Shown in pieces: positions 6,654 through 8,516 of a stretch of DNA of 24,000 nucleotides. A program made the translations under genes and the position numbers. The notes under the pieces were generated by a model. That model was not told the DNA's origin. It ran no database searches and saw only the letters and a program-made list of their open reading frames with translations. The stretch is from an uncultured Anaerolineae bacterium (lineage in GTDB: Bacteria; Chloroflexota; Anaerolineae; JAFGEY01): the NCBI GenBank assembly GCA_964428175.1, contig CAYRXM010000009.1:6554-30553 (forward strand), in the 5' to 3' direction. Numbering within the stretch: position 1 is the first letter of the stretch; every line of letters starts with the position of its first letter.

Positions 6654-7079
6654 TCACGAGCAACAACTGCTTTGGGCGTTACTTGAGCTGCAACCGCTTT
6701 CTCTGTCGTCGCGGGGGCCGCAAGTTGCCTCTTGTCGTCCGGTCAATGCCGCTGCGATCATTGCTGCGGCACAGCCCACGCCGTTGTCGACGGCGATCGC
6801 GCCGGTGGGGCAGTTACGCTGGCACGCGCCGCACTCCATACACACTTGGGCGCGGATCAATTCTGCGTGGTTTTTCCCGTGTACAAAGACACCGTGCGGG
6901 CAAACAATGCTGCATAGCCCACAGTTAATACACAAGTCAGGCGAGTAGGCCAACGTATTGACTTCATTGGTCAGCACCGATGCTCCTTGCAATGTCGCCT
7001 CGTCTTGTAGCGTCGATGTGCTGCAACACGATTTTTGGGTGGTCGTACATTCGCATGTTGTTCTAATCGTTGATGCCAT
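6654..7079 (-). CDS. hgcB: HgcB, 2x[4Fe-4S] ferredoxin of the mercury methylation pair (141 aa from ATG 7079; 107 aa if GTG 6977 is used)
   Basis: The motifs CINCGLCSIVCP and CMECGACQRNCP (HgcB signature C[MI]ECGAC) are present. The conserved GVGC cysteine and a C-terminal vicinal pair (SSCCS-stop) are also present. The gene starts 20 nt after the hgcA stop. GGAGGG lies 8 nt upstream of ATG 7079, and an alternative AAGGAG lies 5 nt upstream of GTG 6977. Confidence 0.85.
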   Translation of the reverse strand: MASTIRTTCECTTTQKSCCSTSTLQDEATLQGASVLTNEVNTLAYSPDLCINCGLCSIVCPHGVFVHGKNHAELIRAQVCMECGACQRNCPTGAIAVDNGVGCAAAMIAAALTGRQEATCGPRDDRESGCSSSNAQSSCCS

Positions 7080-7099
7080 AGATTTTTCCCTCCAGTCGA

Positions 7100-8107
7100 C
7101 TACAGTGATGATAACAATGAAATTAGACGCATTACAGACATCAATAAAGCTAAAATAATGCCCGGTGCAAAGGTCCAGGCCATCGCCGCGATGTAGCGTT
7201 GCATCTCGCGCTTGACGCCTGTTTTGGATGTGAACGTAGTCGAACCTGTAAAGTTTAGGGCCAAAAAGGCCGTCACCGGCGGCATGCTCAACAGGTAGGC
7301 GATAACCCAGGCGATGCGCTGCCAGAGCGGCTTGTCGACCGCGCTAAAGAATGCCGCCAGCGCAAACGGTAGGGCTACGATCCCGCCCAGAATGAAGCCT
7401 TGAGTGCTGAATTCGCGCGTCGGCAGCCAGGGCAATAATAGCGGAAACAGTGCGGTTCCGGCCAGCACAGCGACGATAGCCGCGCCGGCGGCCAAAGGCC
7501 CGGCAATCAATAACAAGACGATTGCGGCCAGCAGGGTCGGCCAGAGGGTATGCACCAATTCGACCGGGATCAATACCAGGCGATCCCAGAGATCAAATCG
7601 TACGCGGCGCATTTCGGGTGTCGCCTGACCGGTTTTGAGGTACTGGGGCAGATCGGCGGCGCGTACCGGCCCGTATTCCACCTTGAACCCGCATCGACGT
7701 TTGACCTCGTGGGCAGCGATGCCTGTTGCGCCCAATTGCGGCAAGATCAACTTGCGGTGTTCAACAATCCGGGCAAGCTGTGTCGCCTCGATGCGCTGGA
7801 CGAGTTCGTCGGTGCCAAACGTCCCTTTGCCTGCCGCACACCAGACATTGATCCCTTTGGTGTCGAGGACCAGGATATAGCCGTCGATGCCGGGCAGAGA
7901 CGTACGCAGCGCATCAAAACTGAGCGTATAATTGGCGGTTACAAATACAGGCGATGTCGGTGTGGGCGTACCCAGCGTGTAAAGCCCTGGCTCGACACGA
8001 TGTCCGGTGTTTCGATTGACGCCCCATCGCGCCAGGATGTGATCCCAGCGATCGGCGCTGGACAGAGTGCTGGTGGTTGAGCGTAGTGTCAAATTGTCCG
8101 TTGTCAT
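7100..8107 (-). CDS. hgcA: HgcA, corrinoid protein of the mercury methylation pair (335 aa)
   Basis: The cap-helix signature GINVWCAAGKGTFGTDELV (N[VI]WCA[AG]GK) is present, with SPVFVTANYTLSFDALR upstream of it. The C-terminal half has five hydrophobic helices. I chose ATG 8107 (MTTDNLTLRS) because GGAGGA lies 9 nt upstream and the start forms an ATGA overlap with the arsR stop. The track's longer 371-aa version overlaps arsR out of frame. Confidence 0.92.
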   Translation of the reverse strand: MTTDNLTLRSTTSTLSSADRWDHILARWGVNRNTGHRVEPGLYTLGTPTPTSPVFVTANYTLSFDALRTSLPGIDGYILVLDTKGINVWCAAGKGTFGTDELVQRIEATQLARIVEHRKLILPQLGATGIAAHEVKRRCGFKVEYGPVRAADLPQYLKTGQATPEMRRVRFDLWDRLVLIPVELVHTLWPTLLAAIVLLLIAGPLAAGAAIVAVLAGTALFPLLLPWLPTREFSTQGFILGGIVALPFALAAFFSAVDKPLWQRIAWVIAYLLSMPPVTAFLALNFTGSTTFTSKTGVKREMQRYIAAMAWTFAPGIILALLMSVMRLISLLSSL

Positions 8108-8454
8108 CCGTTGTCTTCCTCCATTGTGTCCTGCGATACCTGAGCTTGCTCTAAATCCAGATTGGCTGCATCGGCATAGGTGGGGGCAAAGGTCGAGATC
8201 AGCCGCCCACAGCACAGGGTCAGCCGATTCTGATCGAGAGTGTAAAAGCGCTGCCGTCCCTCTTGTCGGACCATAACCAGGCCGGCTTGTTCCAACTTTT
8301 TGAGATGGTGGCTGACGGTGGGCTGGTTGATCTTGCCACCCAATGCATCGACCAGGTCACTTACATTGAGCCATGCGCAGCACAGATGGCGCATAATATC
8401 TTGCCGCGTTTCGTCGGCAAGCGCTTTGGCAAATAAAACCGGATCGGTGGTCAT
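8104..8454 (-). CDS. arsR: ArsR/SmtB-family metalloregulator (116 aa)
   Basis: The HTH region reads ALADETRQDIMRHLCC-AWLNVSDLVDALG-INQPTVSHHLKKLEQAGLV. A vicinal Cys pair sits at the position of the ArsR CVC site, and a second CC pair occurs in LTLCCGRL. The stop codon overlaps the hgcA start. Confidence 0.9.
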   Translation of the reverse strand: MTTDPVLFAKALADETRQDIMRHLCCAWLNVSDLVDALGGKINQPTVSHHLKKLEQAGLVMVRQEGRQRFYTLDQNRLTLCCGRLISTFAPTYADAANLDLEQAQVSQDTMEEDNG

Positions 8455-8488
8455 TCACCCTCCAAAATATCGACGATCATCAATGTAA

Positions 8489-8516
8489 ATTATATCGATA
8501 ATTGTCGATTTGTCAA
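8489..8516 (-). promoter_or_regulatory. Consensus sigma70-type promoter TTGACA-16-TATAAT of arsR-hgcAB, with ATCGA/TCGAT candidate operator half-sites
   Basis: On the minus strand, TTGACA is at 8516-8511 and TATAAT at 8494-8489, with a 16-nt spacer. ATCGA-N6-TCGAT (8494-8509) lies in the spacer. The palindrome ATCGACGAT (8469-8477) lies in the leader, ~15 nt upstream of ATG 8454. Confidence 0.55.

Follow-up and report, generated by a model that had tools for sequence, protein, structure and literature searches.

The DNA analysed here is a stretch of 24,000 nucleotides (nt) from contig CAYRXM010000009.1, called the window in the following, and it carries the genes arsR, hgcA and hgcB on its minus strand. 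Methylmercury is a neurotoxin of food chains, and predicting its formation requires knowledge of the carriers of hgcAB and of the switches that control these genes. An earlier note, made from the DNA letters alone, had claimed a complete and tightly coupled arsR-hgcA-hgcB mercury-methylation operon. Both parts of this claim were borne out: three minus-strand open reading frames (ORFs) were found with products of the true HgcA and HgcB families, and the coupling can be read directly from the junctions. This arsR-hgcAB operon, in a Chloroflexota genome of the Anaerolineae type, is well formed and ordinary. Its features are the following.

8489..8516, minus strand: sigma-70-type promoter with -35 TTGACA (8516-8511), a 16-nt spacer and -10 TATAAT (8494-8489), 12/12 consensus positions
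8494..8509: predicted operator O1, palindrome ATCGA-CAATTA-TCGAT, an exact ATCGA-N6-TCGAT that fills the -35/-10 spacer and touches the -10
8469..8484: predicted operator O2, ATTGA-TGATCG-TCGAT with one mismatch, between the -10 and the ribosome-binding site (RBS), over the expected transcription start
8454..8104, minus strand: arsR, ArsR/SmtB-family winged-helix repressor of 116 amino acids (aa), RBS GGAGGG at 8463-8458
8107..7100, minus strand: hgcA, corrinoid protein of 335 aa, corrinoid-binding domain at about residues 36-160, membrane domain at residues 173-334 (DNA 7591-7106)
7826..7849, minus strand: HgcA cap-helix motif NVWCAAGK, residues 87-94, within INVWCAAGKGTFG, codon of Cys90 at 7840-7838
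7079..6654, minus strand: hgcB, 2x[4Fe-4S] ferredoxin of 141 aa, RBS GGAGGG at 7093-7088
6978..7079, minus strand: HgcB N-terminal extension, residues 1-34, MASTIRTTCECTTTQKSCCSTST..., with C9, C11 and the vicinal pair C18-C19
6609..6657: strong hairpin (-30.5 kcal/mol by RNA folding, z = -6.9) where hgcB and the GH4 gene converge

The HgcA and HgcB proteins

The TGA of arsR and the ATG of hgcA share the sequence ATGA at 8107-8104, an overlap of 4 nt. hgcA ends with TAG at 7102-7100, and the ATG of hgcB follows 20 nt further on the same strand. A 371-aa ORF with a GTG start at 8215 was considered as an alternative start of hgcA. It was rejected because homologs and hidden Markov model (HMM) matches alike set in at about residue 8-10 of the protein with the ATG start. 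Behind hgcB, none of 200 shuffled sequences folded as well as the hairpin. It is terminator-like on the plus strand and has a short T-run (TTTC) on the hgcB strand, and it is likely a bidirectional terminator.

A check with curated HMMs, as proposed in the earlier note, was done with the NCBI equivalog models. HgcA scored 449.4 bits with NF040863 (cut-off 275), and HgcB scored 103.8 bits with NF040864 (cut-off 99), with a match spanning residues 37-127; both matches are far beyond chance. The fused HgcAB-like model gave 217.4 bits for HgcA, which is under its cut-off of 285, and the CFeSP gamma model gave 74.8. CdhD was the only Pfam match of HgcA (2.2e-13, residues 36-150), and searching the PDB sequences returned CFeSP chains only (2h9a/4c1n/4djd, E ~1e-13 to 1e-8, best 6.5e-13, residues 37-158). 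CFeSP, the AcsC/CdhD-like protein of the Wood-Ljungdahl pathway, has a corrinoid-binding domain that is homologous to about residues 36-160 of HgcA only. Unlike the HgcA of the window, it has neither the cap-helix Cys nor the membrane domain.

The cap-helix motif and the five hydrophobic helices that had been ascribed to HgcA were both recovered, with hydropathy and AlphaFold in agreement. In an alignment of 40 homologs, N87-G98 was invariant, including Cys90, which is the predicted cobalt ligand. The role of the equivalent cap-helix Cys93 has been described for ND132 (PMC7305189); the two residues were equated through the motif N(V/I)WCA(A/G)GK, with indirect support from the fold match to the ND132 model given below. 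By hydropathy, the hydrophobic segments fall within residues 177-335. The AlphaFold model, built with 40 homologs, had a pLDDT (predicted local distance difference test) of 83.6 and showed five long helices (173-202, 204-227, 233-255, 261-289 and 295-334) behind an N-terminal domain of alpha/beta type. The best Foldseek match of this model was the ND132 HgcAB model 9a0b_A (43% identity, 327 columns, E 1.9e-19), followed by CFeSP structures with E ~2e-7. HgcA of the window and of Pseudodesulfovibrio mercurii (Desulfovibrio desulfuricans) ND132 are alike in the cap-helix Cys and in the five transmembrane helices.

HgcB matched the Fer4 families of Pfam, and all motifs noted before were found again. 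Two CX2CX2CX3CP clusters are present, CINCGLCSIVCP (residues 50-61) and CMECGACQRNCP (residues 80-91). Cys103 lies in GVGC, 13 residues past Cys90 of HgcB in the second motif; in the HgcB alignment it forms an invariant column, as do the cluster cysteines. The tail contains C120, C130, C139 and C140, the last two followed by a terminal Ser (...SSCCS). A strictly conserved Cys some 12-13 residues behind the second motif (Cys73 in ND132) and tail cysteines have been described for ND132 HgcB (PMC7305189), which is alike in its two CX2CX2CX3CP motifs, in the Cys 13 residues after the second one and in the C-terminal CC.

The N-terminus of HgcB differs. While typical HgcB has about 16 residues ahead of the first cluster Cys, the window protein has 49, and the extra 33 are Thr/Ser-rich. 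By its description, ND132 HgcB has 10.2 kDa and C-terminal Cys94/Cys95 (PMC7305189), compared with 141 aa and a Cys-bearing N-terminal extension here. In the closest metagenomic relatives (L083-L087), hgcB starts 17-20 nt past hgcA and Cys-bearing extensions are present as well. An SCC motif was found in L084, L086 and L087, a likeness judged by eye since MAFFT left the motifs unaligned; L088 has no N-terminal extension. Among the genome-representative loci, no Cys pair was seen in a genuine N-terminal extension. Judged by the sequences compared, the long Cys-rich N-terminus is common only to the window and a few of its closest metagenomic relatives, and sets them apart from the Anaerolineae metagenome-assembled genomes (MAGs). 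A start-site artefact is less likely, given that the relatives start equally far from hgcA with Cys-bearing extensions. The long apparent N-termini in many genome loci, in turn, were dismissed as artefacts of ORFs that run into hgcA in another frame. By analogy with the C-terminal CC tail, which has been proposed as a shuttle for Hg(II) and methylmercury (PMC7305189), the extension might form a second flexible, metal-handling thiol arm, but this is weakly inferred. Some Methanoregula HgcB proteins (L064, L059, L047, L040) were found to carry a different, Cys-poor and charged extension, e.g. MSGSGKVQQNPDEKKNQSGFF; HgcB N-termini therefore vary by lineage.

The ArsR subfamily and its promoter

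Two large sets of loci served for comparison. Through HgcA, 80 loci were fetched from species-representative genomes. Metagenome contigs were searched with an alignment of the ArsR subfamily, which gave 80 loci, and 52 of these encode an ArsR with both of the vicinal Cys pairs described below (two-CC ArsR).

ArsR of the window matched Pfam HTH_5 (1.3e-12) and NCBIfam NF033788 (78.6 bits, cut-off 55). At the position aligned with the canonical alpha-3 site ELCVCDL it reads WLNVSDL, so that NVS replaces CVC, and its cysteines are found instead as the vicinal pairs C25-C26 and C81-C82. The protein should not be filed as a canonical ArsR. C81-C82 was invariant in 10/10 aligned ArsRs; C25-C26 was present in the eight two-CC members and missing from L085 and L088. 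Atypical ArsRs of the C. glutamicum and A. ferrooxidans type also have Cys ligands outside the canonical ELCVCDL site, vicinal pairs included, and have the winged-helix ArsR/SmtB fold in common with the window protein. In C. glutamicum ArsR (6j0e), the residue aligned with C26 is the Cys of AAGGCGPV, which is Cys55, an As(III) ligand. The window ArsR resembles 6j0e only weakly in sequence (E 5e-6). Its second site, LCCG, where the C-terminal helix begins, is missing from 6j0e, and SrnR (7p6f), the nearest solved relative, has LCVG at this position.

The genes downstream of this regulator were then compared. Among the genome loci, a two-CC ArsR stood directly upstream of hgcA in 7 Chloroflexota loci (L004, L009, L018, L038, L050, L054, L057) and in no methanogen locus. 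These hgcA-linked ArsRs are only 46-57% identical to the window protein, whereas members linked to arsM, a permease or an oxidoreductase (L089-L095) reach 64-72%. At least 300 nt of downstream sequence were available in 48 of the 52 two-CC metagenome loci. Here the first downstream gene encoded ArsM in 31 cases, a permease in 7, HgcA in 5, a flavin adenine dinucleotide (FAD) oxidoreductase in 2 and another protein in 3. The ArsM assignments were confirmed with NF008823 (274-318 bits, cut-off 263). Composite loci of the order arsR-arsM-hgcA(-hgcB) or arsR-permease-arsM-hgcA were also found (L098, L126, L129), and arsM adjoins hgcAB in the two closest HgcA relatives with context (L084, L085). 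A role of this ArsR as a dedicated regulator of hgcAB was rejected, as most members of the subfamily precede arsM.

Two further observations concern relatives of the regulator. Upstream of the closely related hgcA genes in L085 (3300-3460) and L088 (7500-7655) lies a second ArsR type of 95 aa with an NCVDFC N-terminus, ECCG and a single Cys at the alpha-3 position. Its sites have the same ATAGAC/GTCTAT half-sites, 12 nt apart and downstream of the -10. Among its neighbours are an Rrf2 regulator and cysteine-synthase-like genes. Behind two of the closest homologs of the window ArsR, L093 (1103-2647) and L095 (2684-4342) encode a FAD/NAD(P)-dependent oxidoreductase of ~515-550 aa. Because its similarity to ArsO and to YpdA-type disulfide reductases is weak, we regard it as uncharacterised cargo of the subfamily.

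The promoter lies 35 nt upstream of arsR, and position 8516, which the earlier note had given as the boundary, coincides with its -35 hexamer. With up to one mismatch, ATCGA-N6-TCGAT occurred twice in the window, as O1 and O2 only, compared with 0.37 expected matches; two matches were obtained in 5/100 shuffles. Related loci retain the TTGACA/TATAAT frame upstream of arsR, and their flanking DNA is unrelated. The position of O1 was kept in 7/7 Chloroflexota arsR-hgcA loci. There the site reads ATAGA-N6-TCTAT, so that the window operator, with ATCGA in place of ATAGA, differs symmetrically on both arms. Most of the related loci have a second site at the relative position of O2. Taking all fetched loci together, AT[ACT]GA-N6-TC[AGT]AT was found in the promoter of 49/59 distinct two-CC ArsR loci. 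Base 3 of the half-site covaries with the recognition-helix residue that follows HHL: it is C or T in 18/20 half-sites of the Lys group, to which the window belongs, and A in 100/134 half-sites of the non-Lys groups. The layout is that of a classic autorepressed ArsR/SmtB operon, in which we infer that ArsR would bind at O1 and O2. In two Anaerolineaceae arsR-hgcAB loci (L038:5560-5614 and L054:2089-2143), the ATG of arsR was found just 5 nt past TATAAT, which implies a leaderless arsR mRNA or another start, and only one operator.

By its sequence relatives, the sensor would most probably respond to As(III) or methylarsenite, because this regulator subfamily and its operator normally control arsM and efflux permeases. 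Such an effector fits the ArsR-controlled, arsenic-responsive transcription of hgcAB that was reported for ND132 (bioRxiv 10.1101/2022.10.17.512643). In the arsR2-hgcA-hgcB locus of ND132, a co-oriented ArsR/SmtB regulator also stands immediately upstream, and ArsR2 likewise has four cysteines in two pairs. According to its description, however, these are arranged as CxC...CxC (47/49, 86/88), compared with CC...CC (25/26, 81/82) in the window, and close homologs of ArsR2 were found only next to hgcAB (bioRxiv 10.1101/2022.10.17.512643). The Chloroflexota subfamily is mainly linked to arsM, and the overlap of arsR with hgcA by 4 nt is a further difference from ND132. The window ArsR thus probably belongs to a different lineage, as far as it can be set apart by the description of ArsR2.

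Origin of the locus, proposed function and alternatives

The assignment to an Anaerolineae-type Chloroflexota genome rests on the phosphoglucomutase of the window, whose closest relatives are proteins of Anaerolineae, Litorilinea, Ardenticatenaceae and other Chloroflexota. This agrees with the GC-rich, Chloroflexota-like genome of the earlier note. Identical HgcA, ArsR and HgcB sequences occur in the Logan assembly of SRR10178538, and identical HgcA and ArsR also in an NCBI contig of 53 kb. More than 100 clusters (90% identity) of mostly metagenomic HgcA relatives were found at 67-78% identity (E<=1e-20), and identity to HgcA in the Chloroflexota genome loci was 54-69%. In species-representative genomes, the best matches were Anaerolineae and 'Chloroflexia' MAGs mixed with methanogens, the same Anaerolineae/Methanomicrobia mix as for HgcA of Anaerolineae and Anaerolineales MAGs, which clusters with methanogen HgcA. 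A grouping of Chloroflexi with Euryarchaeota HgcA is already known (PMC7438021, PMC10469668). The seven genome loci named above also have the same arsR-hgcA-hgcB order and promoter-operator layout. Numerous reports exist of Chloroflexi and Anaerolineales with hgcA, which were named as major putative methylators both for the Black Sea (PMC10469668) and for marsh and sediment samples (PMC7573106). An arsR upstream of hgcA was described in 14/31 confirmed methylators (PMC10349881); Chloroflexi MAGs were likewise seen to have the regulator, along with transcripts (PMC7438021). The earlier note had presented the organism as a candidate 'non-canonical' methylator and the gene pair as rare. Neither 'non-canonical' nor 'rare' could be upheld, and the significance of the find was overstated, because hgcAB in Anaerolineae and the upstream arsR are well documented and the protein is not rare.

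Base composition suggests that the operon was acquired horizontally. The GC content at third codon positions (GC3) is 0.61-0.67 in arsR, hgcA and hgcB and 0.75-0.83 in the flanking genes. We consider transfer of a block of ~2.6 kb plausible, and horizontal transfer of hgcAB has been widely discussed (PMC7438021). In a relative with an 85%-identical phosphoglucomutase (L082), the pgm gene and the next gene are common to both loci and are followed by different genes. The GH4 flank is absent there, so that a breakpoint and not a clean empty site is seen. Divergent from arsR (8723-9201, plus strand) lie overlapping genes for a DUF4160 protein (57 aa, possibly truncated) and a DUF2442 protein (102 aa), whose GC3 of 0.52-0.53 is lower than that of any other gene in the window. 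They make up a low-GC3 block with arsR-hgcAB, and the pair may therefore belong to the same acquired segment.

We consider it probable that the locus as a whole is a true mercury-methylation operon of an Anaerolineae-type Chloroflexota, with predicted repression by ArsR and probably acquired horizontally as a block. By homology to ND132, HgcA would be a membrane-anchored corrinoid protein in which Cys90 ligates cobalt and the methyl-cobalamin methylates Hg(II), while the two-[4Fe-4S] ferredoxin HgcB would re-reduce the cobalt. Both Hg(II) and methylmercury would be handled by Cys103 of HgcB and by its flexible Cys-rich tail up to Cys139-Cys140. The N-terminal extension holds a further pair of vicinal cysteines. 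The one sigma-70 promoter would transcribe all three genes, with translational coupling between them. ArsR dimers would bind O1 and O2 and thereby repress the operon and arsR itself, until a thiophilic metalloid, most likely As(III) or methylarsenite, occupies the two vicinal Cys pairs and frees the protein. The ATGA overlap, the single promoter and the conserved palindromes give indirect support to co-transcription of arsR with hgcAB and to repression by ArsR.

Several points weigh against this explanation. Mercury methylation by the operon would follow from homology only, because as of 2020 no Chloroflexi had been tested or shown to methylate mercury (PMC7573106); to this extent 'candidate methylator', as worded in the earlier note, remains fair. 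The score of HgcB is only narrowly above the cut-off. An internal GTG at 6977-6975, preceded by AAGGAG at 6988-6983, could give a canonical HgcB minus the extension, and long and short forms may both exist. In ArsR, NVS stands in place of the canonical arsenite site, and the window was found to lack ars genes. O1 and O2 are predicted operators, and the covariation of their half-sites (Fisher p = 3.6e-8) was calculated with a statistic that ignores the relatedness of the loci. In ND132, Hg(II) did not induce hgcA, and methylation rates were not predicted by hgcAB transcript levels (bioRxiv 10.1101/2022.10.17.512643). The lower GC3 is suggestive of transfer, not proof.

Other explanations of the locus were weighed against the same data. 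HgcA and HgcB could be HgcAB-like paralogs that do not methylate mercury and are related either to CFeSP or to the HgcAB-like fusions. The CdhD/CFeSP domain is indeed common to HgcA, and a secondary match to the fusion model was obtained. However, the equivalog score of 449 bits contrasts with 217 for the fusion model, below its own cut-off, and 75 for CFeSP. Moreover, hgcA and hgcB are separate genes, the fold search ranked the ND132 HgcA model first, and the cap-helix Cys, the five transmembrane helices, Cys103 of HgcB and its C-terminal CC are all there. On these grounds we regard a paralog as very unlikely, and as the least probable of the readings. We also give little credit to the operon being a passenger island that arrived recently, is poorly expressed or is decaying, and that serves no purpose for its host. 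Its GC3 well under that of the flanks, the adjoining DUF4160/DUF2442 pair of even lower GC3 and the break of synteny with a close relative would suit such an island. Against it, the three reading frames are intact, their RBSs are strong, the promoter is perfect, the palindromic operators are undamaged, a terminator hairpin is present and all catalytic residues are conserved.

A role of HgcAB in the response to arsenic or another metalloid has more in its favour. HgcAB might, for instance, carry out corrinoid-dependent methyl transfer to an arsenical or handle thiol-bound metalloid, with mercury methylation as a side reaction. The locus has its regulator subfamily and its operator in common with arsM and permease operons, arsM adjoins hgcAB in the closest HgcA relatives, and the composite arsR-arsM-hgcAB loci exist. 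In addition, hgcAB of ND132 is arsenic-responsive, and an hgcAB knockout was more sensitive to As(V) (bioRxiv 10.1101/2022.10.17.512643). Still, the arsenical substrate is hypothetical, the window has no ars gene, and the co-regulation may merely reflect reuse of a convenient regulatory cassette. Such a role would also be compatible with a capacity for mercury methylation and not exclusive of it. We therefore judge it rather unlikely as the main function. A bolder form, which we hold to be unlikely, treats Chloroflexota hgcAB as interchangeable cargo of an arsenic-type ArsR/operator cassette: its native substrate or role would lie in the response to arsenic or thiophilic metalloids, methylation of mercury would be a by-product, and the N-terminal Cys pair of HgcB would serve as a metalloid-binding arm.

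Read as a mercury-methylation operon, the locus is one more, expected, Anaerolineae-type carrier of hgcAB. What is new is modest: the regulator is linked to a family that mainly serves arsM, the dual operator is conserved and covaries with the recognition helix, and HgcB has a Cys-rich N-terminus. That the regulator subfamily is common with arsM operons strengthens the reported arsenic-mercury regulatory link outside Desulfovibrionaceae. If ArsR does respond to arsenite or methylarsenite, arsenic exposure could modulate the methylation potential in anoxic habitats rich in Chloroflexota.

Other genes in the window

The operon is flanked by genes for a GH38 alpha-mannosidase, an RraA-like protein, a GH4 glycosidase and phosphoglucomutase (pgm), in line with the sugar-metabolism neighbourhood that had been described. 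The ATG of a gene on the minus strand (9255-10652) lies 1 nt past the pgm stop; it encodes a conserved protein of 465 aa with no Pfam match, and the gene pair is also kept in one relative (L082:700-3916). Further away, two long ORFs overlap on opposite strands, 15832-17325 (minus) and 15946-17265 (plus), both without a Pfam match. The plus-strand ORF is probably the real gene, because its GC3 is higher (0.745 vs 0.645) and its product is a probable lipoprotein with a Thr/Pro-rich linker. Two large genes are unrelated to the operon. One (17247-23186, plus strand) encodes a secreted-type protein of 1979 aa with NosD/beta-helix and three Calx-beta domains, and the other (12322-15492, minus strand) encodes a BTAD-TPR (SARP/AfsR-like) regulator of 1056 aa. 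Large genomes of Chloroflexota or Actinomycetota typically encode proteins of both kinds.

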